Of a stretch of 64,000 nt of DNA, positions 835-15,889 are shown piece after piece. This DNA is from an uncultured virus (IMG/VR IMGVR_UViG_3300027770_000003) (lineage: Duplodnaviria > Heunggongvirae > Uroviricota > Caudoviricetes). Under the pieces are notes generated by a model that saw nothing but the letters and a program-made list of their open reading frames with translations, had not been told where the DNA came from and searched no databases. The first letter of the stretch is position 1; every line of letters begins with the position of its first letter. The stretch lies in IMG/VR virus record IMGVR_UViG_3300027770_000003; one strand, 5' to 3'. Made by a program: the position numbers and the translations under genes.

Positions 835-858
835 CATTGAGACCATTACAGACTTTTA

Positions 859-1473
859 CTAACTGTGAGCATCCTCTGACTGGTGCAAGGCACTCAATTC
901 AGCACCACGAGTGTCACCATCATCACCATCTTCGGTTGCGATTTTGACTGCCATCTCCATGATTGCACTTCCCATTTCAGCAGTGAAGAAAAACTGACCA
1001 AATCGCACACCATCACGCCATGCCAAGCGAACCTGTCCATCTGCAATCGCTGTCCACTTCACTCCATTCACAATGTCACGGCGTGACAAGCGTGTGAAGA
1101 TTCCATCTTTGGCAACACGATCAACTGTTGAAAGACTCATGTCGTACTGTTCCACTTCCATGAAACATTCTGTGAAACCAATCGGATGACAGATCGCTGA
1201 GTAATCGTTGTCAATGCCGACATTCTTCCAGCCACCTTCACCAGCGAACTCGGAGAGCAGAACACCTTTGACAAGTTCGTCAGTGAATTGTGATGTTTCT
1301 GTCCATGTGTATCGCTGTGGTGTGTTGTTAAGATCTTCCATCGCTTCCATCACTCCACACTCGGAGCAGATCTCGGTCTTATTGTCTCGGCGTGAAAGTG
1401 CTCCACAATATTCTCCAGCATGAAGCCGATTTGGAATTGGCTCGGAGCAAAGAGGACACATTTTGATTTTCAT
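859..1473 (-). CDS. Hypothetical protein with N-terminal Zn-ribbon
   Basis: CPLC...ALSRRDNKTEICSECG; start moved to the ATG at 1473 behind an AAAGGA RBS. Confidence 0.7.
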   Translation of the reverse strand: MKIKMCPLCSEPIPNRLHAGEYCGALSRRDNKTEICSECGVMEAMEDLNNTPQRYTWTETSQFTDELVKGVLLSEFAGEGGWKNVGIDNDYSAICHPIGFTECFMEVEQYDMSLSTVDRVAKDGIFTRLSRRDIVNGVKWTAIADGQVRLAWRDGVRFGQFFFTAEMGSAIMEMAVKIATEDGDDGDTRGAELSALHQSEDAHS

Positions 1474-1504
1474 TTCAGTTCCTTTCGGTTGGTTTACAAA
1501 CTCA

Positions 1505-1532
1505 AAGTTATCACTTCGGAATGGCTTTGCAA
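1505..1532 (-). promoter_or_regulatory. SigA-like promoter TTGCAA-N16-TAACTT with extended TG, abutting a motif copy
   Basis: Intergenic position; motif copy ends immediately 5' of the -35 box. Confidence 0.5.
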
Positions 1533-1554
1533 GGACATTACAAACATTTGAGAT

Positions 1555-1585
1555 ACAGAAAAGCCCCAGCCTTTCGGCTGAGGCT
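1555..1585 (-). terminator. Intrinsic terminator
   Basis: AGCCTCAGCC-GAAA-GGCTGGGGCT-TTTC after the stop at 1611. Confidence 0.8.
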
Positions 1586-1610
1586 CTTCTACTTGCTTCT
1601 GATGGGGGAA

Positions 1611-2669
1611 TCAGGCGCAAACTTCGGTGAGCCTTTCCAACACCATCTTGTCGTAATCGGCTTGCTGATTGCTCAAGAGCCTTGAGTAGTTCCTGTTGTA
1701 GCGATTCTTATCGCCACCACTGAAGTGTTGGTGGAAGGTGGTTGTGGCTTGGACAACACCAAGTGCTGTGTTCTTCCAAGGGGTCACTCGTGCATCATCA
1801 CGCCACAAGTTCTCCAGCAAGTCACGCTTCGGATTCTGCTTGCCAGCAGAGCGAGTGTCAGGTGTTGATGTCTTCACTGTGATCATCTTGCCAGCCTCAT
1901 CAGTCGTGATGATTTCTGCCAAGTTGATTGGGAAGAGATCTTCCACCAATGCTGTGAACTGGTTGTCAGTGACTGCCCATGCACTCAACTTCTCAAGTGC
2001 GAGCAACATATCGTCCGATGTCTTGAACACGATGTCCAAAGCATTGCGAACCGATGTGAGATCTCCCATTGAGTTTCCACTGTGACGGAACTTGATCTGC
2101 TGACCTTGCTCGCCAAGTGCCATTGCAAGTGTGTTGTCGCAAACCACTGCCTGCATCACACGCTTGATGATGGTTTGATTCTTTCCATCATGCGATGTTG
2201 TTGCGAGAAGTGTTGGGCGAAACTCAAACCCTGCTGATGATGTCACTGAATCAGGAACTGAGATCTGAACCCAACCACGAGCCGACTTTGTGAGAAGTCC
2301 TGCTGAGTCAATTCCGAGTTCTGATGAGTCAATGATTTGATTCAAGTTGTCCAACAACACTTCGCCGTACTGGTGGATCTGATAACGATCCGACACCACG
2401 CCGAACACATTGCCATCTTTTCCGTGAACGATTGCTTGTGTGTTTTCAATCTGACGGTAGTAGCCCTCTTCGGTCTGCTGGAACACTGGACGAGACACTG
2501 CCTCAAAGTTGAACAGTCTGCGCCGAACATCTTCCACTGGAATGAATCCATCGTAAGAGTTTGGCTCATCGCCCTGATCTTCTGCTCGCCAATGCCATGC
2601 CTTGCCACGCTTCAACACATTGCCGATTAAGGTCATTGTGTTGAGCCACTTGCTGGTCTCTGCACTCAT
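1611..2669 (-). CDS. DUF932 / TIGR03299 phage-plasmid-like protein
   Basis: LLATTSHDGK, VVCDNTL and FRHS motifs typical of DUF932. Confidence 0.8.
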   Translation of the reverse strand: MSAETSKWLNTMTLIGNVLKRGKAWHWRAEDQGDEPNSYDGFIPVEDVRRRLFNFEAVSRPVFQQTEEGYYRQIENTQAIVHGKDGNVFGVVSDRYQIHQYGEVLLDNLNQIIDSSELGIDSAGLLTKSARGWVQISVPDSVTSSAGFEFRPTLLATTSHDGKNQTIIKRVMQAVVCDNTLAMALGEQGQQIKFRHSGNSMGDLTSVRNALDIVFKTSDDMLLALEKLSAWAVTDNQFTALVEDLFPINLAEIITTDEAGKMITVKTSTPDTRSAGKQNPKRDLLENLWRDDARVTPWKNTALGVVQATTTFHQHFSGGDKNRYNRNYSRLLSNQQADYDKMVLERLTEVCA

Positions 2670-2721
2670 GATTGTTACCTTTATTCTTTCCGACCCGTAG
2701 GTCTTTTGGTTGTAGAAGAAC

Positions 2722-2751
2722 ATCATAACCATGCCCACGCTGTTATTGCAA
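2722..2751 (-). promoter_or_regulatory. SigA-like promoter TTGCAA-N18-TATGAT
   Basis: Lies between a terminator and the DUF932 gene; shares upstream TTGAGTA(A)G with the promoter at 743-772. Confidence 0.55.
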
Positions 2752-2780
2752 CTTACTCAAACAATAAAGATTTGAGCCAT

Positions 2781-2817
2781 ATAACACAAGATCCCCAGCC
2801 ACTTGGACTGGGGATCT
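2781..2817 (-). terminator. Intrinsic terminator
   Basis: AGATCCCCAG...CTGGGGATCT stem followed by TGTGTTAT. Confidence 0.7.
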
Positions 2818-2858
2818 CATGCTTGTCTTTTGATGAACTCAGGACATTACAGACTTTT

Positions 2859-3275
2859 CTAAGCGAACAACGACCTGATCGCATCATTGAGAAAACCTAC
2901 TGCTTCGCCTTCATCATAAACTGGATTCTCCCAGTCATCAGAGAAGCGAACAGCACTTGCTGTTTCTGTTGCGTTGGCACAAATAACTACCAACACTCGC
3001 CTGCGCTCAGGGTGCATTGATGGTGGAATCATTTGCTCACCAACATTGTTTGGAGAAGCCCAGCCACAAGTCGTGACGATGACACTGTCTGATGCGATTG
3101 CCACTGCTGATGTAAGTGGATTTTCCAACATCTCGTAGATGTCACCATGTTCCATGATGAGTGTCGTTGATTCTCCACTCACGCTGTAGAAACTTGACTT
3201 CTTTGCTTCTGCCTTTTCTCTTCCGAACATACTTGAATTGCTCAAGTATTTCAGAGTTTCCATTGCTGTGCTCAT
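2859..3275 (-). CDS. Hypothetical protein
   Basis: 138-aa ORF with AAAGGAG RBS; PPSMHPERRRV segment. Confidence 0.75.
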   Translation of the reverse strand: MSTAMETLKYLSNSSMFGREKAEAKKSSFYSVSGESTTLIMEHGDIYEMLENPLTSAVAIASDSVIVTTCGWASPNNVGEQMIPPSMHPERRRVLVVICANATETASAVRFSDDWENPVYDEGEAVGFLNDAIRSLFA

Positions 3276-3344
3276 TCATTGCTCCTTTGGTTTGGTTATT
3301 TCGGATCTAACTTTGGAATCGCTTTGACAATACATTACAGAGTT

Positions 3345-3500
3345 TTATTTCATTTCGTAATAGTTACCGTTTTTAGTTTGTGCGAGTCCAGTGTAAATAA
3401 TTACTTGACCATCGTTGTCCTCATCAAGGCTGGCAGTTGGAATAAGTTCTTCCAACTTGGTACGCAATTCTTCACCGTTAATAATCACTGTGGTTTTCAT
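3345..3500 (-). CDS. Small hypothetical protein (51 aa)
   Basis: MKTTVIINGEEL...; TAATG-coupled to the upstream gene; not in the ORF track. Confidence 0.65.
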   Translation of the reverse strand: MKTTVIINGEELRTKLEELIPTASLDEDNDGQVIIYTGLAQTKNGNYYEMK

Positions 3501-3814
3501 TAGTCCTCACACTCACAATCCTCAAGCGACTCTTCGCACATTGAGCAATCACCTTCGTAGTCATCGTCCTCTTCATCATCTGTGTCCATTGCATCAATGT
3601 CCATTGCATCAACTGAGAACCATGACATCACTGTCATGAGAACATTGTCGTAGTCACCTGATGTTGCTTCGGAGCGAAATGCTTGAACCTGATCACTCAG
3701 TCCGTTTCGCTTGAGTGCCTGAGTGCATCGTGCCATGATTGCAAATGCATTTCCATCTTCACCCACCAAATCAATGGTGATGTTTGGATACTTTGGCTCA
3801 TCTGTCTTTAACAT
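3500..3814 (-). CDS. Hypothetical phage protein with acidic Cys-rich tail
   Basis: LVGEDGNAFAI...SGDYDNVL conserved small phage-protein motif. Confidence 0.75.
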   Translation of the reverse strand: MLKTDEPKYPNITIDLVGEDGNAFAIMARCTQALKRNGLSDQVQAFRSEATSGDYDNVLMTVMSWFSVDAMDIDAMDTDDEEDDDYEGDCSMCEESLEDCECED

Positions 3815-3843
3815 TTTGTTCTTACCTTTCGTTGGTTGGTTTG

Positions 3844-4281
3844 TTACTTACTTGCTTCATTCAACACTCTAGCAACATTTACTCGCATCTCATCAACGAA
3901 CCGATCCCACATCCAGTCGCTGTTTACGGAGTCGGCAAATGATTGAAGTTTCTCGGTGCTGAGATTGAGCAGGATTTTCTGAGTCTCATATGAGTCTGCG
4001 TACATCTCAATGTTGGAGTGGATTTCATCCCTGATTGCGTTGGGGCTAAATGCGATGCAGTTGAGATAGTTCAGATCGCCGTAACCACATCCTTTGAGAA
4101 TGGACATTACAGAGTTTCCTTCATCATCAGCAATTTCTGCAATCGCATCATCGTCACCTTCACGGAATGACTCTTGTTGCTCCTCAGTCAATTCATTGAG
4201 ATCAACAAGAACTAATTGTTCAATGTGCATGAATGTTCCGTTGTCTACATCAACAATTACTTTGTCTGTTTGCGTAGCCAT
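3844..4281 (-). CDS. Hypothetical acidic protein
   Basis: 145-aa ORF, TAATG coupling. Confidence 0.7.
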   Translation of the reverse strand: MATQTDKVIVDVDNGTFMHIEQLVLVDLNELTEEQQESFREGDDDAIAEIADDEGNSVMSILKGCGYGDLNYLNCIAFSPNAIRDEIHSNIEMYADSYETQKILLNLSTEKLQSFADSVNSDWMWDRFVDEMRVNVARVLNEASK

Positions 4282-4643
4282 TACTTGCCCCCTCTGCGTG
4301 TGTAATCGTCTACTGCATCAATGATGTTGTCTGAGTAATCGCCAGTGCTAGCAGAGAAATCTTTCTCTCCTGCAACAACTGCCCACACTGCATACGGATC
4401 ACGATCATTTGCATCTTTCATGCAGATTGTAATCCACGATGCGAGTGTGTCACCAACAACACGATTTGTCTTTTTGGTGCAAGCAATCACTACTGCGCCG
4501 TTGTGAAGAATCGTGCCGATTTCCAATTCGTTATTTCTTGGATCTGATTTCACAATAAGATCTGTTCTTCCACTGCTCAACACTTCGTCCACAAACTGCT
4601 TGAACACTTTGTTGTATTTCTCGGAATAGTCTTCGGATGTCAT
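4281..4643 (-). CDS. Hypothetical protein
   Basis: 120-aa ORF with AAAGGAG RBS. Confidence 0.7.
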   Translation of the reverse strand: MTSEDYSEKYNKVFKQFVDEVLSSGRTDLIVKSDPRNNELEIGTILHNGAVVIACTKKTNRVVGDTLASWITICMKDANDRDPYAVWAVVAGEKDFSASTGDYSDNIIDAVDDYTRRGGK

Positions 4644-4697
4644 TACTTGCTCCTTTTGTTGGTTTGGAATAAATACATTACAGACTTATTTGGACAA

Positions 4698-4763
4698 TTA
4701 CTCCCACATGAGCCAAAAAAAGAAAATGGTCAGAATGAGTGAGGTAATTAGCATTGTTGTCAT
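4698..4763 (-). CDS. Hydrophobic micropeptide (21 aa)
   Basis: MTTMLITSLILTIFFFWLMWE; ATGA overlap with the upstream stop. Confidence 0.45.
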   Translation of the reverse strand: MTTMLITSLILTIFFFWLMWE

Positions 4764-5050
4764 ACTGCGCCAGCCAGTCCGAGTAAGCATTTGAGAGTGT
4801 AGAAGCGTGGCAATGATGTATCAAAGCACTCGTCACAAGTAACCCCATCGGGGAACAGATCAGTGTCCATCTCAAATGTAAAATCTTTATCAAATGACTC
4901 AAGTGTGTGGGCGCAGTCAAGACATACCCATCTGTCTTCTAATGCTCCTGAATCAGAATCGGTGTAATAACCAAGCACCTCGCACTGCATCAACCAATCA
5001 ATCAATCTCTTTGGAATGATCCGTAAGGGAAATCCGTAGTTACCTCGCAT
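4760..5050 (-). CDS. Hypothetical Zn-binding protein
   Basis: CLDC...CDEC pairs; GGAG RBS. Confidence 0.65.
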   Translation of the reverse strand: MRGNYGFPLRIIPKRLIDWLMQCEVLGYYTDSDSGALEDRWVCLDCAHTLESFDKDFTFEMDTDLFPDGVTCDECFDTSLPRFYTLKCLLGLAGAV

Positions 5051-5267
5051 TTGTAGTCTCCTGTTCGTGCTTGTATTTTGTGATCCAGTCTTGTGCATCA
5101 CTGTCAGACATTACTTCTGCATCCCATGCAACATCAAAACCTGCATCATCACTAAATGTTGGTTGCCCTTGATTGCCCCAACTGATCATTGCGAGATCTT
5201 CTGATTCTGCTTCAACCAAGAATGAGTGCTCAATATTTTGGGAGACTCTTACGATGTAGTAAGTCAT
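5040..5267 (-). CDS. Hypothetical protein
   Basis: 75-aa ORF with GAGG RBS. Confidence 0.65.
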   Translation of the reverse strand: MTYYIVRVSQNIEHSFLVEAESEDLAMISWGNQGQPTFSDDAGFDVAWDAEVMSDSDAQDWITKYKHEQETTNAR

Positions 5268-5443
5268 GATGCCACCTCTTCAATGGACATTACAGCCTTA
5301 TTGCGTGTGATGAATGATGACAGAGCCAATTTCCCAGCCAGTTTTGCTCCGTCAGTATCTTCGGACTCAACCAAGACATGGCGAGACATTTGAGTGTTGG
5401 CTCGCTTTACTTTCCAAGTTGCTGTAGCAATGTACGTTTTCAT
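5264..5443 (-). CDS. Small hypothetical protein (59 aa)
   Basis: MKTYIATATWKV...; AGGAG RBS; ATGA coupling. Confidence 0.6.
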   Translation of the reverse strand: MKTYIATATWKVKRANTQMSRHVLVESEDTDGAKLAGKLALSSFITRNKAVMSIEEVAS

Positions 5444-5451
5444 AAGTTCTC

Positions 5452-5730
5452 CTAAAGATAAGTGATTTGTTCAATGTTCTTGAATGGAATAGTGACACCT
5501 TCAAGATGCTCATCCATCTCGTAGTCGGTGGTCACTGTAATCATGTCATCATCTGAGTCAGTAGCAGACTGGGTAACTGCTTCAACATAACACGAGTAGA
5601 AATCATTTGTGTATGTATGAATGTCTACAAGTGAACCAATCAAGGCTTTGATGTGTGGTGAATCTGCTGGCTGGCAGTCAGAAGACATCCGAACAATGAG
5701 TTGATGAGTACCACCACGATGATTGATCAT
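5452..5730 (-). CDS. Hypothetical protein
   Basis: ORF coupled by an ATGA overlap. Confidence 0.6.
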   Translation of the reverse strand: MINHRGGTHQLIVRMSSDCQPADSPHIKALIGSLVDIHTYTNDFYSCYVEAVTQSATDSDDDMITVTTDYEMDEHLEGVTIPFKNIEQITYL

Positions 5731-6278
5731 TTTGTACCCCATTTGATAATCGTTTCATATGTGTGTTCCAATCCATATGATTTGACAACAAAGTCTTCAG
5801 TAGGTGGCATACCTGTCATCATTCTTTTCAGTTGCTCTTCACCATCTTCGCAGTAGAAGAAGATCTTGTCATCTCGTTGTCCAAACGAATCAAAGTCTTC
5901 ACTGATCTCAGAGTCGTATTCTCCAAATGAAATGTATTGCTCTTCCATAATTCCTGAGTCGTACCACTGAATGATGCAGTGCGCTCCAAGTGCTGTTTTG
6001 TGTTCAGACATTACAGGTTTTTCCTTTGCTGTTGGTTGTTGATGGTTGAACTCTGCTTCATCATAGTCCTTTGCAGGATTATAAAAGTCATCATATGTGC
6101 GAACAATGTGGGGTGAGCGCAATGGAATGAATTGAACAGCAACATTGTTTGGTTGCTCGTCAAACCACGCTTGTGCCTCAGCACCATTCGCAAATGCTCC
6201 AAAGTACCGATCATGTCTACCTGATTGCACAAGAGCGATCAACGGAGTATTTGGAAACTCGTCTTTAAGAGATCCCAT
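5727..6278 (-). CDS. Hypothetical protein, possibly with a second in-frame start at 6011
   Basis: Start reassigned to MGSLKDEF; internal AAAGGA RBS followed by ATG. Confidence 0.6.
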   Translation of the reverse strand: MGSLKDEFPNTPLIALVQSGRHDRYFGAFANGAEAQAWFDEQPNNVAVQFIPLRSPHIVRTYDDFYNPAKDYDEAEFNHQQPTAKEKPVMSEHKTALGAHCIIQWYDSGIMEEQYISFGEYDSEISEDFDSFGQRDDKIFFYCEDGEEQLKRMMTGMPPTEDFVVKSYGLEHTYETIIKWGTK

Positions 6279-6381
6279 TGGCTTCTTCCCAGTCAAGTAA
6301 TGCGTAAGCCCATGTGTTGCAGTCAGTGCATGGGCATTTTGATTCATGCCCTTCAGGCTGTTGTGGTGGTTCGTTTGTCAT
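6265..6381 (-). CDS. Small His/Cys-rich protein (38 aa)
   Basis: MTNEPPQQPEGHESKCPCTDCNTW... Confidence 0.45.
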   Translation of the reverse strand: MTNEPPQQPEGHESKCPCTDCNTWAYALLDWEEANGIS

Positions 6382-6440
6382 AATCTCATTTAATCAGATC
6401 GGAATGGACATTGCAACCTTTTTCCAAACTTTATTTAGGA

Positions 6441-6542
6441 ACACAAAAGCCCCACACCCTGAAAGGATAAATAGGTGTGGGGCTATACCTACCAACCAAA
6501 GTAGGTTTGTGCTTTGCATCCACAACATCTAGTGATGTGGAT
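6441..6542 (-). ncRNA. Candidate ~100-nt three-hairpin small RNA ending in an intrinsic terminator
   Basis: -10-like TAAAGT at 6546-6551; stems at 6518-6542, 6487-6506 and 6448-6484 followed by TTTT; no ORF. Confidence 0.5.
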
Positions 6543-6555
6543 CAAACTTTAAGAA

Positions 6556-6774
6556 CTACCAGCGAACACTAATAAAGTTATGTGTGTCTTGACTGATGAC
6601 TTCTTTGTGGAACGGATCGTGGAGCGAGCCACGCAACATCTCTGCAATATCGGGTCTGTGTGCTGACATTGTGTTAAAGAATGTCTGCCCATATCTCCAT
6701 TCATTCCCTAACTTTTCATGGTTCGCTAACACCTTCGCAAGAAACTCTTCGTAGGTCATTTCATTTGTAGTCAT
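6556..6774 (-). CDS. Hypothetical protein
   Basis: WRYGQTFFN...DPFH small phage-protein motif. Confidence 0.7.
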   Translation of the reverse strand: MTTNEMTYEEFLAKVLANHEKLGNEWRYGQTFFNTMSAHRPDIAEMLRGSLHDPFHKEVISQDTHNFISVRW

Positions 6775-7208
6775 TATCTCGCCTCGCATAAGAGTGTAAT
6801 TGCAGTTTGCACAGCAGTGAATATGTTATGTGATGCACCCATTACAAAGTTTTGGTTCATCGGATCAACTATCTCAAAGTATGGATTTTCAAGATACTTA
6901 AACTTCTTCTTTTCTAATACCAACTCATCTAACTGAGCGTCAGTAGTAATACCCCACTGCCATAGTTGAGTCTCATTGACCAACTCACTACGAGCAGGGT
7001 ACTTTCCAAGAACCTCAATTCTGAGATTTCCTGCTACTCGGACTACACAACTATGAAGCATTGTGTATGCATAAGCAACAGTTTTGTTTTCCAAGCCGAC
7101 ATACCACTCTGCTCCCTTCTGATCAAGGTTCGGAGCGACATTCCAAGTGACCATTGGCAAGGACATTACAGAGTTATTTGTGAAGTTAATGTCTCCAGTA
7201 GTTTTCAT
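6774..7208 (-). CDS. Hypothetical protein
   Basis: 144-aa ORF with GAGG RBS. Confidence 0.65.
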   Translation of the reverse strand: MKTTGDINFTNNSVMSLPMVTWNVAPNLDQKGAEWYVGLENKTVAYAYTMLHSCVVRVAGNLRIEVLGKYPARSELVNETQLWQWGITTDAQLDELVLEKKKFKYLENPYFEIVDPMNQNFVMGASHNIFTAVQTAITLLCEAR

Positions 7209-7214
7209 CGTCTG

Positions 7215-7511
7215 TTATTCCTCATCTCTGTAAAGTTTTACTCTGACCTTGCCCAACTCAAATCCCTTGTCAGTGAGAATGTCGTTGGTGTCAGAATCAA
7301 CTGGGTAAGCAAAGGCTGTCAAGTATTTCGTGCCATAGATGTAGAAGTTGAGTGCGTATTTCCTAAACTCTTTGTCAGGGTAATACCACTCATCATGATC
7401 CGAATAAAAGCGTTCATTGTTATTAGTTAATGCTGACAAATAACCTTGAGCAAATAACCACAATGCAGTCATGTCTGCCCCGATTGCCTCATTAAGTTTC
7501 TTACGAGCCAT
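7215..7511 (-). CDS. Hypothetical protein
   Basis: 98-aa ORF with AAGGAG RBS. Confidence 0.7.
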   Translation of the reverse strand: MARKKLNEAIGADMTALWLFAQGYLSALTNNNERFYSDHDEWYYPDKEFRKYALNFYIYGTKYLTAFAYPVDSDTNDILTDKGFELGKVRVKLYRDEE

Positions 7512-7522
7512 TACTTTCTCCT

Positions 7523-7888: not shown

Positions 7889-8001
7889 TTGTTGTTCTGC
7901 ATTTCGCTCCATGAAATCATGCTTTCATCATCCTTTGGGTCTTTCTTTAACAGTTTGCACCACTCTAAATAAGTGATGTCATCATCAAATACTTTAATCA
8001 T
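7885..8001 (-). CDS. Small hypothetical protein (38 aa)
   Basis: MIKVFDDDITYLEWCK...; AAGGAG RBS. Confidence 0.5.
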   Translation of the reverse strand: MIKVFDDDITYLEWCKLLKKDPKDDESMISWSEMQNNK

Positions 8002-8194: not shown

Positions 8195-8394
8195 TTAGGA
8201 GTCTCAAACTCGTCTACGACTACTGAGCGCAACTTGGAAGCATCGTAATCCCAAACACTTCCTTCCCATCCTTGCCGTTCTACAAACTCGGTGATTGCAA
8301 GTTGGTTTACTGCGTCCTCACTAAGTTCAATGACGCTCTCAATGAGGATTCTGAATGTCGCTGGAACGGTGACATTACAATAATATGTGATCAT
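8191..8394 (-). CDS. Hypothetical protein
   Basis: 67-aa ORF in a coupled gene string. Confidence 0.6.
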   Translation of the reverse strand: MITYYCNVTVPATFRILIESVIELSEDAVNQLAITEFVERQGWEGSVWDYDASKLRSVVVDEFETPK

Positions 8395-8788: not shown

Positions 8789-8797
8789 AATTAGTTT

Positions 8798-9259
8798 CTA
8801 CCAAGATGACTGGTAGTAGAAATCCCAGCGATCTTCCATTGCAAGACAAGTCTCCAAAATATCAACAGTGTCGGCAAGGTCTTGGAAGTACCACTCGTCA
8901 TAATCTGTTGAGCCAAAGAAGAAACCTTCTTGGCAGGGAAGCAACTCATCTGCTTTTGAGTGATCAGCAATAACTTGCTTGCACAAATGAAGCAGTTCTC
9001 CAAGTTTGTCTCTGTCCACAAAACTCTCACGGCAGTCATCTTCGCCACCCTGACAGTTGTCTACAAAGTATTGGTGAATGTGGTTTGACTTGCGCCATTG
9101 CCCAACTAACATTTCAACTGAAATGCTTGGATGGTTCTTGTAAAGAAACTTGGAAGCATCACCAAGTGCATCTTTAAGTTGGCTGAACTCTTCTTCGGTG
9201 TTGTAAAGACCACTTTCCGATGTGTATTTCTTTGCTCTCAGGTACTGATCTAATCCCAT
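8798..9259 (-). CDS. Conserved phage hypothetical protein
   Basis: MGLDQYL...WRKSNHIH...GFFFGSTDYDEWY...YQSSW family signature. Confidence 0.85.
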   Translation of the reverse strand: MGLDQYLRAKKYTSESGLYNTEEEFSQLKDALGDASKFLYKNHPSISVEMLVGQWRKSNHIHQYFVDNCQGGEDDCRESFVDRDKLGELLHLCKQVIADHSKADELLPCQEGFFFGSTDYDEWYFQDLADTVDILETCLAMEDRWDFYYQSSW

Positions 9260-9290
9260 GACTTGCTCCTTTGTTTGGTTTGTGTTTGGA

Positions 9291-9319
9291 ATGGTACTGG
9301 CAAGCAGTGACCATTACAA
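9291..9319 (-). promoter_or_regulatory. SigA-like promoter TTGTAA-N17-TACCAT whose -35 box is the motif core
   Basis: The motif copy at 9312 supplies the -35 box. Confidence 0.5.
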
Positions 9320-9324
9320 CCTTT

Positions 9325-9774
9325 TTATTTTAATTTTTCTCCAGCCTTACCACGAACGGCTTTATTCAAGAATCCATGCTCTCTTGCACTCATCACCCTC
9401 TTGGCTGATGTGCTCTTAGAGATGTTGAACGCTTTAGCAATACTTGGTATCGGTGGGATTCCGTAGTTGCAGGACTCTTTGTAGATTCGGGCAACTTCTC
9501 GCAACACATCTTCTGACAGTGCAGAACCACGATGTGCTCCTGAGTGCTCAGTAGTAAGCGTTGGCTTTTCTAACACTCTTTCTCGTGCCACTTGCACAAA
9601 CTGCACGATAGGAACTCTGCGATAAGTTTCTACAGTAATCGGTGTGCCGTCCAATGATTCAATGAGAACAGAACTAAACACAAGATGATCTGCCATCTTC
9701 TTTAATCCAATAGTGATGTCATATTTAGTTTTAGTTACTGGATCTTCCCAACCCAATGTATGAACGATGGTCAT
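9325..9774 (-). CDS. HTH DNA-binding protein, DUF6214-like
   Basis: LREVARIY...IAKAFNISKSTSAKRVMSAREHGFL. Confidence 0.7.
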   Translation of the reverse strand: MTIVHTLGWEDPVTKTKYDITIGLKKMADHLVFSSVLIESLDGTPITVETYRRVPIVQFVQVARERVLEKPTLTTEHSGAHRGSALSEDVLREVARIYKESCNYGIPPIPSIAKAFNISKSTSAKRVMSAREHGFLNKAVRGKAGEKLK

Positions 9775-10052
9775 TTGCGTTGTTCTCTCCGAATCTTTTG
9801 TCGTGCACGATCTGTAGTGCCACCCCAAATGCCCGACACATAATTATCAAGGGCATAATTCAGGCAACTGGTCTTTACAACGCAGACATTACAGAAGTTT
9901 GCAATCACTCCACGATACTCACCACTGTCACCACGCTCAATAAAAAAGTTATTGACGCTAGTTCCGTAGCAAGCACCACGCTTCATCCATTTGGGATCTT
10001 CACGCAAGACTTCCTTGAAATTGTTTGTACCTTCTACGAGCGTTTCACTCAT
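9771..10052 (-). CDS. whiB: WhiB-family transcriptional regulator
   Basis: WMKRGAC...CNVCVVKTSC...GIWGG: four Cys plus the G(I/V)WGG turn. Confidence 0.9.
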   Translation of the reverse strand: MSETLVEGTNNFKEVLREDPKWMKRGACYGTSVNNFFIERGDSGEYRGVIANFCNVCVVKTSCLNYALDNYVSGIWGGTTDRARQKIRREQRK

Positions 10053-10387
10053 GCAGTCACCATGCTCAATACATCCAATAACTGGACAAATGAGTCTTCT
10101 GCCTCAAACGACTCAGGGTAGGTCTTTTGTGCGTCTTGGACAAACTTTGCGTACAGTGCATCGTCACTTGGTGAGTAGTGATTGCAACCACCAGTACCTG
10201 AGTTCTCTACCGTACAAACGACTACTTTTGTTTTTGCTTTAGCGATCTTTCCAACCCAACTTACGCCACGACTGTGCTCCATCTCAGAGACAATCTTGAA
10301 TGTGTATTTTCCTACTGCACTTTGATCAGCAGGAACTTCTACAAAGTCTTGGTGTTCTTCAGGAATACTTTTGTAATAGTCAATCAT
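10049..10387 (-). CDS. Hypothetical protein
   Basis: MIDYYKS... with GAGG RBS; VENSGTGGC motif. Confidence 0.65.
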   Translation of the reverse strand: MIDYYKSIPEEHQDFVEVPADQSAVGKYTFKIVSEMEHSRGVSWVGKIAKAKTKVVVCTVENSGTGGCNHYSPSDDALYAKFVQDAQKTYPESFEAEDSFVQLLDVLSMVTA

Positions 10388-10716
10388 TGTGCTTCCTCTA
10401 CTTGCCAAAATCCAAATGATGCTCCGTCTGAATCTGATGCTCCGAAACTGCATCCTTCGGGAGCGATTGCATCCATCACATTGAACAGGTGCTCAAGAAG
10501 AAATGACTCTTGCTCATAATCCCGATCCGATTTTGGATTGATGATGTTAAACAACACATCTTCCCATTCGTCCAAAATCGCATCTTTAATTTTGTGATCG
10601 TGCTCCCCGATTACTGAAAGAAAGGCTTTTGCCAAATCCTCATTACGGAGTGTTCCTTCGCTAACAACTTGGTTTACCCAAGTGTCTGCGAGAGGTCTGA
10701 TGTTCTCATATGACAT
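10384..10716 (-). CDS. Hypothetical protein
   Basis: SEGTLRNEDL...APEGCSFGA...GASFGFW conserved phage-family motif. Confidence 0.75.
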   Translation of the reverse strand: MSYENIRPLADTWVNQVVSEGTLRNEDLAKAFLSVIGEHDHKIKDAILDEWEDVLFNIINPKSDRDYEQESFLLEHLFNVMDAIAPEGCSFGASDSDGASFGFWQVEEAQ

Positions 10717-10741
10717 ATGTTGCTCCTTTGGTAGAAGCAAC

Positions 10742-10770
10742 ACATTAGTGGGTCAGAACAGTTTTGACAA
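10742..10770 (-). promoter_or_regulatory. SigA-like promoter TTGTCA-N17-TAATGT
   Basis: Near-consensus boxes upstream of an RBS. Confidence 0.7.
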
Positions 10771-10772
10771 CC

Positions 10773-10925
10773 CTATTCTTGAAGATTCTTTATTTCCGAG
10801 TCCGTGTATAACGGGAGCGTTTTATTCTTTGTGGCGCAGTGATGCGTAGGGCTATCAGACAGCCTCAAAAAGACTGTTAGTTGCTCTGAGCAATGTGGGC
10901 AGGAGTAATCGGTTTTGGGAGACAT
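10773..10925 (-). CDS. Small Zn-finger-like protein (50 aa)
   Basis: CPHC...HHC; AAGGA RBS. Confidence 0.5.
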   Translation of the reverse strand: MSPKTDYSCPHCSEQLTVFLRLSDSPTHHCATKNKTLPLYTDSEIKNLQE

Positions 10926-10935
10926 TATCTAATCC

Positions 10936-11460
10936 TTAATTTTGTGGAGTCCAAGGATCCCATCCTGCCACATCAAAGAGTGCTTTACCAGCACGGAGAT
11001 TATTTTGAGCAATCAGTAGAGGTTCTTGGGTGCAAATACCTAAGACAGTACAAACAACTGCCCACTTGTTGCGAGACAAGTCGTAGTTCACTCCATTAAT
11101 TTGGAGAAGCCCACTATCGGAACGGTGCGTGTAATCAATTACTCCTGTGACATTACAGGCTTTATCTACAATGTCACCACCTCTTCTGTTCGGACATCCA
11201 CCTGATTCTCGGAGAATAATCTGACCCAGTTTCTTCCACGTTTTTGGAGGCCATCCTGCTTCGGCAGCAAGTTGTGGGAGCCAACTAATATCCCCATGAC
11301 GGAACACAACGGGAGCGACTTTATCCCTTTGATCCACAATCGGGGTGCTTACTTTTACTTCGGGTTTTTCGTTTGAGGAAACTGCTGGTGCTACTGATAG
11401 TACGGTTGCTATTCCAAGATTTGCGAGTAGGGCACTAAGTATCGCCGTAAGTTTGATCAT
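10936..11460 (-). CDS. Secreted lytic transglycosylase (SLT-like)
   Basis: Hydrophobic signal peptide; ILRESGG catalytic Glu, DSGLLQIN and GWDPW motifs. Confidence 0.8.
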   Translation of the reverse strand: MIKLTAILSALLANLGIATVLSVAPAVSSNEKPEVKVSTPIVDQRDKVAPVVFRHGDISWLPQLAAEAGWPPKTWKKLGQIILRESGGCPNRRGGDIVDKACNVTGVIDYTHRSDSGLLQINGVNYDLSRNKWAVVCTVLGICTQEPLLIAQNNLRAGKALFDVAGWDPWTPQN

Positions 11461-11483
11461 TCATCATCCTTTGTTCGGGTAAT

Positions 11484-11505
11484 AAAAAAGCCCCATTACT
11501 GGGGC
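11484..11505 (-). terminator. Intrinsic terminator directly upstream of the SLT RBS
   Basis: GCCCCA-GTAA-TGGGGC-TTTTTT. Confidence 0.75.
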
Positions 11506-11543
11506 GGCTGCTCCTATTGGGAACACCTCTAGTTTACCCTAAA

Positions 11544-11954
11544 TTACTCTTCTAGCAACCTTTGGAGCAGAGTTTTTAGATCGCCAAGATCGTTACTGCT
11601 ATTGGGTATTACGCTAATATCAATATCTTTTTTTCTTTCTAAGTTTGCATCAACACACAGAGTGCAAGTGCAACCTTGTCTGTATCTCACTACTGTGCCA
11701 TGCACTGCAAGATTAGATACACGAGCAGATTTCTGAAGTGGTGTTCTGTCTTGTGGAGAAAGCCCACCCCACACTCCATAAACTTCTTTGATGCCTATGT
11801 CTAAACATTCTTGCCAAACTGGGCATACATTACAGATAGTTTTAGCGATGGCGTAATACTGTTCGGGATGTGGGGAATCAAAAGGTGGGAACCATATGTC
11901 TCCTGCTAGTTTGTTGCACAACGAATCCTGCATCCATTCGGGAGTAGTCTTCAT
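11544..11954 (-). CDS. whiB: WhiB-family regulator with an extra C-terminal HGT...CxCxxC domain
   Basis: WMQDSLC...CNVCPVWQEC...GVWGG, then HGTVVRYRQGCTCTLC. Confidence 0.9.
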   Translation of the reverse strand: MKTTPEWMQDSLCNKLAGDIWFPPFDSPHPEQYYAIAKTICNVCPVWQECLDIGIKEVYGVWGGLSPQDRTPLQKSARVSNLAVHGTVVRYRQGCTCTLCVDANLERKKDIDISVIPNSSNDLGDLKTLLQRLLEE

Positions 11955-12250
11955 GCGTTAGTCTCACGGTATAACGCAAGAGCAATAATTGCGTATGACG
12001 CAAGATCTATTAAAGAGTCCTCTATACCTTCGTTTACTAGTTTGCTACCTTTAGCAGCGCTTTGCAATCGGATTACTTTATCGTTTGCTCTAATAAGAGT
12101 CCCAATCCAACTAGGGACACCCCAATCAGCAGATGCACGAACATTTGCGAGAGGATCTTCAGCAGTGCCGTAATCTTTTCCTTTTTTGCTATGTAGTTCT
12201 CGCAACTCATCTAGGATTTGGAAGAACATTGGATTTCCGTATTGGTTCAT
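11951..12250 (-). CDS. Nucleotide modification associated domain 1 (DUF1599-like) protein
   Basis: KKGKDYG...DKVIRL...EGIEDSLIDLASYAII. Confidence 0.75.
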   Translation of the reverse strand: MNQYGNPMFFQILDELRELHSKKGKDYGTAEDPLANVRASADWGVPSWIGTLIRANDKVIRLQSAAKGSKLVNEGIEDSLIDLASYAIIALALYRETNA

Positions 12251-12678
12251 TCTTCATCTCCTGTTTCTACCCAAGCACTAAGATCGTCCATCATGTAAAA
12301 GACTGGGATGCCCAATCTTTCTGCTTCAAGTACCTCATCAATAGTTCCAAGCGAACTTTCGGAATCATGAACTAGAACAGCATCACAACGCTTTAGTATC
12401 TGAAAGCAGTATTCATTCCAATGACCAACACTGTGCTGATGTCTCTTTTGCCAGTGGTATGTAAGATTAGGAATAATCGGGAGACAAATACCCGATGTGT
12501 ACAATTCTTCTGCTATGTCTATAGCATCATTACAGTTATCCTCAAAGTCTTCGTGTACATATGGCCCTGCTATGTAAACGTGGGGCAAAACCAGGTGAGC
12601 AAGAGTCCTTAAAAACTCCTTGTTTGCACCCTCTTCTAATATGTCTTCCGAGTAGTTACGCAAATGAAATCCTCTCAC
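12247..12678 (-). CDS. Nucleoside 2-deoxyribosyltransferase-like protein (DUF4406/DUF1937-like)
   Basis: VYIAGPY...LKRCDAV...SLGTIDE...LGIPVF. Confidence 0.7.
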   Translation of the reverse strand: MRGFHLRNYSEDILEEGANKEFLRTLAHLVLPHVYIAGPYVHEDFEDNCNDAIDIAEELYTSGICLPIIPNLTYHWQKRHQHSVGHWNEYCFQILKRCDAVLVHDSESSLGTIDEVLEAERLGIPVFYMMDDLSAWVETGDEE

Positions 12679-12680
12679 TA

Positions 12681-12752
12681 TTAGTATCTGTTCATACTAG
12701 ATCGTGAGAGGAAGTAAAAGCAAGCAAGGGCAAATAGCACTATAAATCTCAT
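12681..12752 (-). CDS. Hydrophobic micropeptide (23 aa)
   Basis: MRFIVLFALACFYFLSRSSMNRY with AGGAG RBS. Confidence 0.45.
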   Translation of the reverse strand: MRFIVLFALACFYFLSRSSMNRY

Positions 12753-12796
12753 GTTGTACTCCTGATGTTGGACTAATTTATCCAACCCTACTACAA

Positions 12797-13039
12797 CTAT
12801 TTAGTTGTGGTATTCCAGTGGTACACGGCTTGGTGAAGAACCCCTAAAACATCGTCAGGATTCTCGTCATCATTCTCTAAGGCTTGGCAATAACTATTTG
12901 CTGCTTTGATAATGCTTTCAGCATTAGCCAGTTTCTTAGCAAATGAATCAACCAGTTGGCGTAGTGCCTGCTTATCGTCATACGCCCTAGCGAGAGAGAC
13001 TTGAAGATCTTGAATTACTGCAAACTCAAATGATTCCAT
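12797..13039 (-). CDS. Hypothetical coiled-coil protein
   Basis: 80-aa ORF with GAGG RBS. Confidence 0.65.
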   Translation of the reverse strand: MESFEFAVIQDLQVSLARAYDDKQALRQLVDSFAKKLANAESIIKAANSYCQALENDDENPDDVLGVLHQAVYHWNTTTK

Positions 13040-13066
13040 AAAACCTCATTTCATAGGTTATATACC

Positions 13067-13095
13067 AGCGTACATCCTATGAATGGTCTTGTCAA
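13067..13095 (-). promoter_or_regulatory. SigA promoter TTGACA-N17-TACGCT
   Basis: Perfect -35 box, TANNNT -10 box. Confidence 0.75.
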
Positions 13096-14528
13096 GCATC
13101 ATCCGAAAGATCTAGGACATCTTGGTACATGGTATTGGCTTGATGGGCGTTTAATCCCCCACTTGACAACTGCCTAGTGACATCCCCAGCACTCTGCCCA
13201 AACAAGCGACTCAACACTCCACTGCTTCCACGAGCCTCTACTTCTAAGCGAACCATATCCCGTGTATCACTTATGTTCCTAAACTTCTCAACAAGGTTAA
13301 AGAGCCTGTCTACTTCTCCTGAAAGTGCTGGGTCAAGACCTTGACCTTCTAGTTCTTCAGCGAAGCGAGCGAACAAAACACGACTCACTTGCATCTCCAA
13401 CATTGCCCTCAATGCGGCTTGTAACTGATCCTTAGTTTTAATCTCTACAGGCAACTTAAAGCCACACTCAGAATCTTGTCGGAAAGCAGGGCAACGAGCG
13501 CTGAGATAGCAACTATTGCATTGACGTAAAAGGTTGCCTTTATACGAAATTACTGGTATCTTTTCAACGCCTAATTCTTCAGATTCTTCATCACCAGCAA
13601 GGGTTTGAGCGAGTTGTGGAGTGAATTGCTCAATACCAATGACAGGTAGTAATACTTTGTCATCCTCGTGCCGCATCTCAGCACCTCGGATACTAATACT
13701 TGACCCCCTAGGAGCCACATTTGGAACGGAAGGCACATTGCTGGGATAGTTACTATCCGTGACACTTTCTGATAGACCAATTTCTTGCTCATCATCAAGT
13801 TCTTGAGGCTCATAGACCCCAAAAGTTGTCTTTTCCCATGCTTGCCAAGACACGATTGCAAGCCTTGCTACCTCAGAGTTATCATCTTGAACAATGGCAT
13901 CGTAGTCAATACCTAGTTTAATGATGTCGTTTCGGTGCTTCTTTCGGGCGGAATCTTTCTGTTGTGCTGGGTATCGGCGTAGCCCATGACCATCCCAAAC
14001 CTGAGTCTCGCCATAACGAACGGCAGATGTCCAAGAACCCACAATTACTGAATCCCAAGGCAGTGAAGCAATAACATCGGGCTTGGACGACAACCCAATC
14101 AATTTGGCATCCCACCTTTGGACTAGGTTTCTAATGCGGGATATTGTTTTGCCATTAACTGCTTTGTCGCTGATTGCTGCTCTGCCATTCTTCTGGCATA
14201 ACCACGCAAGTCGTTCCATATCGTCTGGGTCATTCCATACAGGAATATAGCGTTCACCTAGCCAAGTACCGTCATAATCGGGTCTTCCTATGACCATTGC
14301 AATGTTTTCGTAGTGCTGTCTGACAAAATCGTCATAGCGACTGACATCCTCATCAGTCTCCGAGGTGTACAGAACGATGTCCCCAGCAGGGAACATTACA
14401 GACAAATCAAGTTCTTTTTTCTTAGGAATTGGCAAATGGGTGAGATTCACTGCGTATTGCGTGACACCTGATGCCTGAAGCAATGACCTGTGGGATGCCT
14501 TTTCAGCATTGGCAAAGTAAACTTTCAT
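13092..14528 (-). CDS. TGT/DpdA-like TIM-barrel protein (degenerate active site) fused to a Cys-rich C-terminal domain
   Basis: IPVW, LIGL...LPWDSVIVGSWTSAVRYG pattern; C-terminal CNSCYLSARCPAF...C. Confidence 0.6.
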   Translation of the reverse strand: MKVYFANAEKASHRSLLQASGVTQYAVNLTHLPIPKKKELDLSVMFPAGDIVLYTSETDEDVSRYDDFVRQHYENIAMVIGRPDYDGTWLGERYIPVWNDPDDMERLAWLCQKNGRAAISDKAVNGKTISRIRNLVQRWDAKLIGLSSKPDVIASLPWDSVIVGSWTSAVRYGETQVWDGHGLRRYPAQQKDSARKKHRNDIIKLGIDYDAIVQDDNSEVARLAIVSWQAWEKTTFGVYEPQELDDEQEIGLSESVTDSNYPSNVPSVPNVAPRGSSISIRGAEMRHEDDKVLLPVIGIEQFTPQLAQTLAGDEESEELGVEKIPVISYKGNLLRQCNSCYLSARCPAFRQDSECGFKLPVEIKTKDQLQAALRAMLEMQVSRVLFARFAEELEGQGLDPALSGEVDRLFNLVEKFRNISDTRDMVRLEVEARGSSGVLSRLFGQSAGDVTRQLSSGGLNAHQANTMYQDVLDLSDDA

Positions 14529-15010
14529 TCAGAGGCTCCTACGTCTTTGTAGAGAGACTGTACATCAATTTCATGTGCTAGATCACTCCATATCTGGCGC
14601 TCTTTGGGCTTATTATCTCGCCATTCTGGGCGAACAAAGTTAGGCAAACAAACTAAAATGCTGGGAATAGCATCCTGCATTACAAGCGTGACAGTCTCAG
14701 GATTGGTATCCACAAACCAATCAATCTTTCCGTAGACTGCGTTCAAGTCACGAACACGGTCACGGAAGGCTGTTGGTCCTTTTCCTTTCACCGTATCTGC
14801 AAGTGCAAACTTATAGCCTTCTCGTTTAGCCCAAGCGTTTAACATTTCAGGATCAATGTCATTACCACCAAGAATAATCATTCTTCCGTGATACCTTGCG
14901 TACAAGGCTTCGTACAATTTTTGACCATCAGGTATTGGTTGTCTTGCGCCTGGAACCATTGCCTTATCAGTTGGTGCGTAGGCTAAAACGTCAAAGGTGA
15001 CTACGAGCAC
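14525..15010 (-). CDS. HAD-fold-like protein (degenerate motif I)
   Basis: MLVVTFDVLA start and FVDTNP resemble HAD motifs I and IV. Confidence 0.5.
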   Translation of the reverse strand: MLVVTFDVLAYAPTDKAMVPGARQPIPDGQKLYEALYARYHGRMIILGGNDIDPEMLNAWAKREGYKFALADTVKGKGPTAFRDRVRDLNAVYGKIDWFVDTNPETVTLVMQDAIPSILVCLPNFVRPEWRDNKPKERQIWSDLAHEIDVQSLYKDVGASE

Positions 15011-15468
15011 TAGTCGTACATACCCATTTGTGTGCGCTCTTTATGAGCAACATACCCTGAACCTACTGGGCAATAATGGCAAAGGTACTGACGATTGGCT
15101 TTTGGAACACCAACTTTACGACCAATGGTCTTAGACTCATCTTCCCAGTCAATGCAACTACCTTTAGGTGCACCATGTCGTTGGAAACACTTAAGTGCTT
15201 CTACTTTAAGATCGTCACGAACTTCACGAACTTCAATCTCATTCTTCATCAATTCTTTTTTAATGCCTGTTTCACCATCTAATGCATCATAGGTTGCTTG
15301 ATCGCATCGGTATATCTGAGACATATGCGATTCAGGTGAAGGATCTTGAGCACGACCTAGGTGCATCTTGATAATCTCTTGTAACTCCATGTCATTATCT
15401 GCGTTACCGTCATAGTCCCGCATTTTGTGCATTGTCCCGCATGAATTACAAACTAATAGTCTTGGCAT
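15010..15468 (-). CDS. Zn-binding hypothetical protein
   Basis: CNSC, CFQRH...C, YLCHYCPV. Confidence 0.7.
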   Translation of the reverse strand: MPRLLVCNSCGTMHKMRDYDGNADNDMELQEIIKMHLGRAQDPSPESHMSQIYRCDQATYDALDGETGIKKELMKNEIEVREVRDDLKVEALKCFQRHGAPKGSCIDWEDESKTIGRKVGVPKANRQYLCHYCPVGSGYVAHKERTQMGMYD

Positions 15469-15506
15469 GTTGTACTACTTTCTTGTGAACTTACTACCTT
15501 GGTAGT

Positions 15507-15686
15507 CTACTCTTTTTCGTCATCCCAAGTATCATCATGAATACCCAATGCGTCTAGAAACTCTCTTGCTTGGTCCATGATATTAGCACTGCTAGGGTGG
15601 AATTGCTGGCGCTCGCCACGCATCGCCATGCGCTTGTTTCTTGCTTTTTGCGCCTTCTCAAAACTATAGATTTTTGCGTCAGGCAT
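15507..15686 (-). CDS. Small hypothetical protein (59 aa) containing RGERQQFHP
   Basis: TAATG-coupled ORF not in the ORF track. Confidence 0.55.
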   Translation of the reverse strand: MPDAKIYSFEKAQKARNKRMAMRGERQQFHPSSANIMDQAREFLDALGIHDDTWDDEKE

Positions 15687-15889
15687 TACAGACTTATTGT
15701 TGGGTCAGAAACCTCAGCCATAGGGCTTTTTGGGGAAACACCGTACTGGGATTGAAGCACCATTTGACGCTTCATAGAAGGTCCAGACTCCACTACACCA
15801 CCACGATCTGGGGTGAGATTCTTAAATGCGCCATCGGTAATACCTAGGCGAAGGTCATTGTTTTGGGAACGAGATGAGTTTACAGCCAT
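15686..15889 (-). CDS. Hypothetical, putative virion protein
   Basis: MAVNSSRSQNNDLRLGITDG... Confidence 0.65.
   Translation of the reverse strand: MAVNSSRSQNNDLRLGITDGAFKNLTPDRGGVVESGPSMKRQMVLQSQYGVSPKSPMAEVSDPTISL

Follow-up and report, generated by a model that had tools for sequence, protein, structure and literature searches.

The DNA described here is a stretch of 64,000 nucleotides from an uncultured virus (IMG/VR IMGVR_UViG_3300027770_000003), referred to below as the window, which carries in a block of small genes an array of 18–20 copies of a 17-base asymmetric motif. The array is a real and biologically meaningful sense-strand cis element of this one gene class, and it is tentatively read as a promoter-like signal. 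The window belongs to a putative lake phage of actinobacteria, and freshwater and lake metagenome runs contain its DNA; scans of genome contigs for a host, with WhiB and with a sugar epimerase of the relative G2, gave no usable actinobacterial genome. The long open reading frames (ORFs) of the window all lie on the minus strand, and transcription runs across it from base 64000 to base 1. Using Pfam and PHROGs the following regions were recognised:

64–37 kb, minus strand: portal, capsid, sheath, tube and baseplate genes
36–23 kb, minus strand: O-like initiator, DnaC-like loader, DnaB, primase, SNF2 helicase, SSB-like protein, PolA, RecA and Cas4-like nuclease
Between these and the small-gene block, minus strand: some proteins without known function
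16–1 kb, minus strand: the small-gene block, with two WhiB genes and DpdA/TGT-like, deoxyribosyltransferase-like and DUF932 genes

Cultured phages gave no near DNA match, a distant search returning a single 157-nt match, and the best match of the sheath protein is in Streptomyces phage BRock (34% identity). Comparisons were made with the related IMG/VR genomes G2, G3, G006, G011, G012 and G014 and with related loci designated by L-numbers. G2 (96,978 bp) has approximately 78% nucleotide identity to the window, while G3 (98,060 bp) is taken to be a circular assembly because its contig ends overlap by 127 bp. The 34 kb of G2 beyond the window contain DUF6011, a second SNF2 helicase, a short leftward cassette with GNAT genes, glycine-rich and fibre-like proteins, sugar enzymes and the large terminase. 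An integrase, a sigma factor or an RNA polymerase was not recognised in the window or the rest of G2 using Pfam, PHROGs and NCBIfam, and the motif-bearing phage is myovirus-like, 97 kb in length and apparently lytic.

The original prediction, an earlier reading of the bare sequence, had listed 19 plus-strand copies of the heptamer CATTACA, and all of these were found at the places given (the first at 844, the last at 15684) within nucleotides 844–15690. The same interval holds two minus-strand copies (7646, 8167), not the single one reported. Over the whole window there are 44 matches against 12.5 ± 3.8 expected, a number reached by none of 100 dinucleotide shuffles. Since the genes are all on the minus strand, the motif reads in gene sense as AAAAGTCTGTAATGTCC; the plus-strand frame of reference adopted earlier was mistaken, the motif being a sense-strand element of minus-strand genes. 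Its coding-strand consensus is AAAAGTC-TGTAATG-TCC, or, with the degeneracy shown, A-w-A-a-g-t-C/T TGTAATG T-c-c, in which seven contiguous bases are invariant. TGTAATG is the most over-represented 7-mer of nucleotides 1–16000 in gene sense (19 copies versus 1.42 expected from base composition; reverse complement, 2), and CTGTAATG occurs 14 times there versus 0.28 expected. The same 7-mer analysis revealed no other repeated word in the small-gene block. The excess also holds against 1000 codon-preserving shuffles, as the original prediction had proposed to check, with 19 copies observed versus a mean of 8.4 and a maximum of 13; because five intergenic copies stay fixed in such a shuffle, the in-gene comparison is 14 versus approximately 3.4.

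Sites were counted with a position weight matrix (PWM) at a cut-off of at least 13 bits. Compared with codon shuffles, 18 sites were obtained in the window (8.9 expected), 15 in G2 (9.2) and 18 in G3 (5.8); none of 300 shuffles reached any of these counts, and none of 70 column-permuted control PWMs reached the excess of the motif. The ratio of sense to antisense hits within the array is 18:0 in the window, 15:0 in G2 and 18:1 in G3, and the relatives carry 15–18 array copies. The array runs past base 1 of the window, two further copies being present in L001 of the same phage lineage (12953 and 14583), which flank the SNF2 helicase gene at distances of 37 nt (before it) and 81 nt (after it) and are followed by the leftward cassette. 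The array is situated mid-map, between the replication genes and this SNF2 helicase gene and downstream of the former in transcription direction, and the complete relative is a circular assembly; the earlier description of the array as an early region or first-injected DNA is not borne out.

When IMG/VR was scanned with the exact 16-mer, most hits were due to chance, and only 9 of 118 loci had at least three co-oriented copies. The loci that were checked (L024, L029, L038, L048, L056, L060, L075, L079 and L093) come from this phage family or carry its DUF932 gene. Literature on TGTAATG in connection with phages and promoters yielded chance matches only.

The copies of the window are as follows, with core positions in plus-strand numbering:

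841..857, minus strand: core 844–850, 21.3 bits; 8 nt after the stop of ORF 859–1620; a strong hairpin begins 10 nt downstream; homologous copies in G2 (50030) and G3
1533..1549, minus strand: core 1536–1542, 23.2 bits; DUF932 stop 68 nt before, terminator-like hairpin with a T run 18 nt before; next start 62 nt downstream; kept after DUF932 in G2 and G3
2842..2858, minus strand: core 2845–2851, exact consensus, 26.1 bits; 7 nt after the stop of 2859–3275; downstream, a hairpin begins at 27 nt and DUF932 starts at 175 nt
3330..3346, minus strand: core 3333–3339, 21.3 bits; stop 5 nt before; start of 2859–3275 at 57 nt, with a CA-rich leader and a Shine-Dalgarno site between
4102..4118, minus strand: core 4105–4111, 21.5 bits; codon 57 of ORF 3844–4281, read S-V-M; same codon in G2
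4673..4689, minus strand: core 4676–4682, 23.4 bits; intergenic, 32 nt before the start at 4643
5285..5301, minus strand: core 5288–5294, 22.4 bits; last codons of ORF 5264–5443, 20 nt before the ATG at 5267
6006..6022, minus strand: core 6009–6015, 22.2 bits; middle of the open frame 5727–6347; a module junction, since the G2 and G3 orthologues of this frame match only the part downstream of the motif
6406..6422, minus strand: variant copy with TGCAATG, core 6409–6415, 15.0 bits; preceded by a strong hairpin (MFE −25.6); homologous copies in G2 (45632) and G3 (12985)
6837..6853, minus strand: core 6840–6846, 17.7 bits; codon 121 of 144 of ORF 6774–7208
7161..7177, minus strand: core 7164–7170, 24.7 bits; codon 13 of ORF 6774–7208; same place in G2 and G3
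8370..8386, minus strand: core 8373–8379, 15.0 bits; 11 nt after the preceding stop
9309..9325, minus strand: core 9312–9318, 17.7 bits; 6 nt after the stop of a helix-turn-helix (HTH) gene and 52 nt before the start at 9259; arranged likewise in G2 and G3
9884..9900, minus strand: core 9887–9893, 21.4 bits; inside WhiB gene 9771–10052, in its C-N-V-C cysteine motif; C-N-S-C with different codons in a motif-less relative
11148..11164, minus strand: core 11151–11157, 19.7 bits; codon 102 of 174 of ORF 10936–11460; same codon in G2
11825..11841, minus strand: core 11828–11834, 17.9 bits; inside WhiB gene 11544–11954; C-N-V-C in the window, G2 and G3, C-A-S-C in a motif-less relative
12525..12541, minus strand: core-only match, core 12528–12534, 8.1 bits, poor flanks; a doubtful member
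14391..14407, minus strand: core 14394–14400, 19.1 bits; codon 43 of 478 of the DpdA/TGT-like gene 13092–14528, read S-V-M; codons identical in the window, G2 and G3 amid nearby synonymous changes; E-E-M in a motif-less relative
14675..14691, minus strand: core-only match, core 14678–14684, 9.7 bits, poor flanks; a doubtful member
15681..15697, minus strand: core 15684–15690, 23.2 bits; the first array copy in transcription direction; the TAA of the core is the stop of 15686–15889 and its ATG the start of 15507–15686; homologous copies in G2 (37723) and G3 (2769)

The array is present in all low-GC (41–46%) lineages with which the DUF932 gene is common, at protein identities as low as 57%, although in one of these the core is often TGCAATG, and it is absent from three lineages of 51–52% GC. 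In the window, G2 and G3 it occupies the same codon in the DpdA-like gene (codon 43), in the CxxC of both WhiB genes and at codon 13 of the 144-aa ORF; two additional in-gene copies are common to the window and G2. Among codons for a common amino acid, 56 of 67 within the motif are identical, versus 259 of 503 in the flanks (Fisher p = 2e-7, the pairs not being independent). At the motif places the orthologues of the motif-less G006 read L-E-E-M for L-S-V-M, C-A-S-C for C-N-V-C and C-N-S-C for C-N-V-C, the last two in the two WhiB proteins; since their residues differ exactly there, the proteins have been shaped to hold the word, or else released from it. These comparisons support selection on DNA or RNA and not on the protein, as had been argued from the use of two reading frames (xVM and CNV), which is also borne out; the synonymous conservation in relatives that the original prediction had named as a check is thus present. 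This selection is strong enough to determine residues of a DNA-modification enzyme and, in two WhiB proteins, of the cysteine motif. Inside genes the motif can take just two frames, both of which are used, and its ATG is not in frame beyond this expectation. GGTGCTCGA-like words, which are common in the motif-less lineage, were considered as a replacement motif; they were rejected as a codon effect because their flanks are inconsistent and they occur on both strands.

The placement of the copies was analyzed using 51 sites of at least 13 bits from the arrays of the window, G2 and G3. Gene boundaries hold 25 of them, whereas by the gene calls only 10–13% of the arrays is intergenic (p = 3e-10). 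The usual boundary layout consists of a stop codon, 3–9 nt, the core, a CA-rich leader of 20–65 nt with a Shine-Dalgarno site and a start codon, and the top-scoring copies are mostly of this kind. The four stop-codon abutments described earlier (844, 2845, 3333 and 9312) are found in gene sense, with the stop 8, 7, 5 and 6 nt before the core, respectively. A strong hairpin lies upstream of seven copies, three of which have a clear T run. Within the window the spacing is more even than chance, the smallest gap being 324 nt (P = 0.0005 under random placement) and the coefficient of variation 0.60 (P = 0.02). Copies also coincide with breaks in homology: among 72 ends of homology blocks between the genomes, 11 lie within 30 nt of a copy, compared with 5.7% of random points (p = 0.0025), and the 153-aa gene at 8798–9259, which follows a motif copy in both genomes, differs in map position between the window and G2. 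The copy following DUF932, single in the window (1536), is doubled in G3 and G014 as an imperfect inverted pair (L010 approximately 11080–11140, equivalent to G3 sense 15730–15800; L152 11090–11150), with a CCCCC spacer and both copies within a larger GC-rich hairpin.

A ribosome-loading or start-associated word was considered and rejected, since only about eight of the 51 copies overlap a called start and most boundary copies are 20–65 nt away. The start-associated sequences of cluster K mycobacteriophages are repeated asymmetric words close to gene starts, 3–8 bp upstream of the start codon, that include the ribosome-binding site; the array motif differs from them in having no Shine-Dalgarno site and in lying directly at a start in only those eight or so copies. 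Words of the start-associated kind do occur in two distant DUF932 phages of 62% GC, L167 (8233–20342) and L172 (5770–16809), each with 12–13 co-oriented copies of cACACAGAAAGgcGG, every copy 6–12 nt before a start codon; this is an extended ribosome site distinct from the array motif. In a further DUF932 phage of 70% GC, an 18-base tandem repeat (GTGTACGGCAACGCGxGG-like) at L168 12171–12567 lies in a gene; it is protein-coding and unrelated to the array motif.

Outside the array the motif is found mainly on the opposite strand, with antisense-to-sense ratios of 8:1 in the window, 10:0 in G2 and 16:3 in G3, and 14:4 and 4:0 in further genomes. The three principal genomes together hold 34 opposite-strand copies versus 10.5 from codon shuffles, and none of 70 column-permuted PWMs comes near this total; a test with the bare 7-mer is less clear (rank 10 to 839 of 16,384). 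These copies lie inside late genes and mostly read x-I-T. The eight of the window are retained at five places in G2, two in G3 and none exactly in G014, and none of seven in G011. With counts enriched and places unconserved, the opposite-strand excess is real as a count while its individual copies turn over. The density of the two arms differs about eight-fold, and in four genomes the direction switches inside or just after the replication module and again at the leftward cassette.

This change of direction, although all genes face the same way, would suit a polar DNA signal for replication, recombination or DNA ends, akin to Chi, KOPS or a T5-type strand-specific nick site, with an origin in the replication module from which the motif points outwards along either genome arm. 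The phage has RecA, a Cas4/RecB-like nuclease and two SNF2 helicases, and the antisense arm keeps its density and not its positions, as Chi-like words would. Such a signal is nevertheless unlikely. The array sites are individually conserved at their codons with strong constraint on synonymous change, prefer gene boundaries and travel with gene cassettes, and therefore behave as gene-linked elements and not as density signals; conservation of density without position, the mark of Chi or KOPS words, holds for the antisense arm only. The eight-fold difference in density also speaks against it, as do base skews that do not turn at the switch points and a switch point that is not fixed relative to the O-like initiator gene.

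Recognition at the level of RNA would make the motif, in transcripts of the block, the target of a sequence-specific endoribonuclease or of an RNA-binding repressor, serving processing or silencing. Array copies do lie on the transcribed sense strand and are tolerated in coding and untranslated stretches alike; seven contiguous invariant bases would fit single-strand recognition, and the word contains AUG and sits in some ribosome-loading regions. This is quite improbable, however: no conserved structure was found, no Rfam family was detected at E ≤ 0.1 in nucleotides 1–17000, no RNA-binding or RNase gene was recognised, and the AUG is a called start in just the eight or so copies mentioned above. 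Neither the preference for gene boundaries nor the cassette junctions is predicted by it, and the antisense-arm copies put the complement of the motif, not the motif, into late messages.

The best explanation of the array is a class-specific, single-element, promoter-like signal for one gene class, to which we give a probability of roughly 0.45. Host RNA polymerase with a specificity factor would start, or be loaded for, transcription at the sites, and the class served would be the block of small, fast-changing genes, approximately 15–20 kb in length, from the replication module to the SNF2 helicase gene, with one site per one or two genes. Where there is no intergenic room the site would be written into coding sequence, the short homology at the sites would make gene cassettes swappable, and the sparser opposite-strand copies inside late genes would drive early antisense RNAs. 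The motif itself, its polarity, its selection at the nucleotide level and its preference for gene boundaries are shown by the sequence comparisons, while the promoter function, the timing, the reader and the antisense role are inferred.

Several features favour this promoter-like role, namely the polarity of the motif, its confinement to one block, the leader and ribosome site found in the boundary layout, the even spacing of about one copy per gene, the want of any other promoter candidate and the cassettes that travel with the word. The opposite-strand copies add to these: in G2 one such copy is situated 67 nt upstream of the first gene of the leftward cassette, and the antisense arm recalls phage PAK_P3. 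For this virulent myovirus early antisense RNAs are described, mostly within structural genes (PMC4933390); the motif is likewise antisense inside late genes, although its antisense copies are conserved neither in position nor at synonymous sites. The block has no excess of sigma-70-type sites (27 versus 28.5 expected), and because no other repeated word is present either, no promoters other than the motif are in sight for it. The "-35 boxes" of the original prediction are not supported, as they fall on the strand antisense to every gene.

Against a promoter stand the 26 of 51 copies that lie inside genes, among them the one at codon 43 of 478, from which the next start is 1354 nt away, and three copies with a strong hairpin, possibly a terminator, 8–27 nt behind them; one terminator within the array precedes a gene without the motif, and the leftward cassettes of L006 and L010 have no copy upstream such as that of G2. 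A -35-like element is absent and the core fits the TANNNT rule for -10 elements poorly, the last-position T being present in 43 of 63 sites with an invariant G before it. Four metatranscriptome runs gave contigs at 90–99% likeness that show no pile-ups of starts or ends, and the contig ends have no consistent relation to the sites. The antisense copies have neither place conservation nor synonymous constraint (96/166 versus 1084/2085, p = 0.085), and no sigma-factor or RNA polymerase gene was found in the window or the rest of G2, a divergent factor being possible.

Among known systems the motif is similar in form to stoperators and in context to class-specific promoters or to PeSLs (promoter-early stem-loop cassettes), without having all the defining features of any of them. 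The late TATAAATA box of T4 is a single-element class-specific phage promoter, and the array motif is similarly a short, nearly invariant word without a -35 element, in tens of co-oriented copies, some within upstream genes; it differs in the word itself, and a gp55-like factor or other sigma was not found. The PeSLs of T4-type phages are described as a repeated regulatory word that flanks small variable genes and at which cassettes move (PMC4122927). The array shares with them homology breaks and cassette moves at the word in a plastic region. A hairpin often precedes the word in PeSLs; in the array a strong hairpin is situated upstream of only 7 of the 51 copies and downstream of three. Unlike the PeSLs, which hold a sigma-70-type early promoter, it has no -35/-10 pair.

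If the motif is a promoter, the polymerase that reads it would have a specificity unlike the sigma-70 pattern and unlike that of any known phage factor. The motif marks one gene class across a family of uncultured 97-kb phages, where it is the apparent site of cassette exchange, and it could serve as a marker of early or host-takeover genes when metagenomic actinophages are annotated. The low-GC actinobacteria of freshwater belong to the most abundant bacteria of lakes, and to our knowledge almost nothing is known of the timing of gene expression in their phages. A phage isolation study reports only whiB-like and sigma-70 genes in this respect (PMC10202952).

TATA-rich boxes (TTTATATAA, GGTATATAA) occur in several gaps before structural genes (sense coordinates 7778–7836, 8625–8661, 12256–12315 and 42420–42466, for example) and in a conserved gap after the DpdA-like gene (window approximately 13040–13092). 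From their sequence and position they may constitute a second, late promoter class.

The following protein is a candidate for the factor that recognises the array:

9325..9774, minus strand: candidate reader, a 149-aa protein with a C-terminal helix-turn-helix, proposed from its phyletic pattern

This HTH protein is present in the window, G2, G3 and G014 and was not found in the motif-less G006 and G012; its recognition-helix region is nearly invariant across lineages. It is the best of the readers named in the original prediction, although it tracks the motif imperfectly, not having been found in the motif-bearing G011 (73% complete). An AF2 model (mean pLDDT 78) consists of a beta-rich N-domain and a three-helix C-terminus. 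No match was obtained in Pfam, NCBIfam, PDB sequences or Foldseek; among solved chains the best sequence hit was an unrelated ligase (E = 0.0056), and by fold there was none at E ≤ 0.001. Three other proteins occur in four of four motif-bearing and none of two motif-less records, with 460 aa (18323–19705), 143 aa (12247–12678) and 129 aa (7523–7912). The 143-aa protein has a deoxyribosyltransferase-like hit, and the ESM Atlas returned nothing for the other two. The motif-less lineages differ in GC content too, which makes a host factor an equally possible reader.

A phage DNA-binding protein of this kind could also act through a stoperator-like operator array, binding the asymmetric sites as a monomer and blocking elongating or initiating polymerase in one orientation, such that the small-gene block is shut at a set time. 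The stoperators of cluster A mycobacteriophages such as L5 are more than 20 short asymmetric sites in transcription-linked orientation, many of them in short intergenic gaps by stops and starts (PMC9283540). The analogy with L5, drawn in the original prediction, stands as regards the polarity of a multi-copy site (17 bases here, about 13 bp in L5), its co-orientation with transcription and its position, often a few bases from stops; it fails for the spread over the whole genome of a temperate phage, the sense copies filling a single block of 15–20 kb with half of them inside genes, for the motif sequence, which is unrelated, and for the repressor. As had been stated, neither an integrase (Pfam) nor a gp71-like repressor was found in the window, and the rest of the 97-kb relative G2 likewise has none. 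In-gene sites and sites right before hairpins are compatible with a roadblock, a binding site would account better than a promoter for the inverted pair behind DUF932 in G3 and G014, and the distribution of the HTH protein and the near-invariance of its recognition helix agree with such a role. A roadblock is doubtful all the same, given that the HTH protein was not found in G011 and resembles no solved repressor in sequence or fold, that the block would be left without visible promoters and that the antisense arm would go unexplained. Should it apply, stoperator-type control would be extended to a lytic programme.

The motif contains two TGT triplets, and tRNA-guanine transglycosylases recognise UGU. 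These triplets might be targeted by the DpdA/TGT-like transglycosylase of the phage (13092–14528), which carries a conserved motif copy in its own gene, with exchange of guanine for a 7-deazaguanine. The motif would then be a switchable mark, the exchange turning the promoter or operator sites of the block off or on once the enzyme is made, in the manner of an epigenetic timer. We regard this as highly improbable; the motif-less relatives retain the DpdA-like enzyme at 67–68% identity. The enzyme belongs to a likely DNA-modification set at 11951–14528 and 22346–23131 (both minus strand), comprising the 478-aa DpdA/queuine-tRNA-ribosyltransferase-like protein (phrog_887, 1.6e-35), a nucleoside 2-deoxyribosyltransferase-like protein (DUF7768), DUF1599 ("nucleotide modification associated domain 1") and a TauD/arginine-hydroxylase-like dioxygenase. 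Genes of preQ0 synthesis were not seen by Pfam in the window or the rest of G2.

Several other features of these genomes were noted. The leftward-transcribed cassette, the only one of the genome, lies directly after the array and the SNF2 helicase (G2 sense 53433–56050, equivalent to L020 929–3546; L001 15117–17090); it contains two small GNAT acetyltransferase-like genes and its content varies among lineages. On the other side of the array, two proteins without family match are encoded at 16203–17033 and 18323–19705 (minus strand), where RNA contigs and relatives diverge by replaced stretches of 66–200 bases with joints at 16241/16433 and 19124/19191; from these replacements, the region immediately upstream of the array looks hypervariable. 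A homolog of SpoVS (1.5e-19) is encoded at 21244–21534 (minus strand) amid replication and recombination genes. The product of 58241–58876 (minus strand), immediately upstream of the portal gene in transcription direction, has a weak match to a proteasome subunit and may be a prohead protease.

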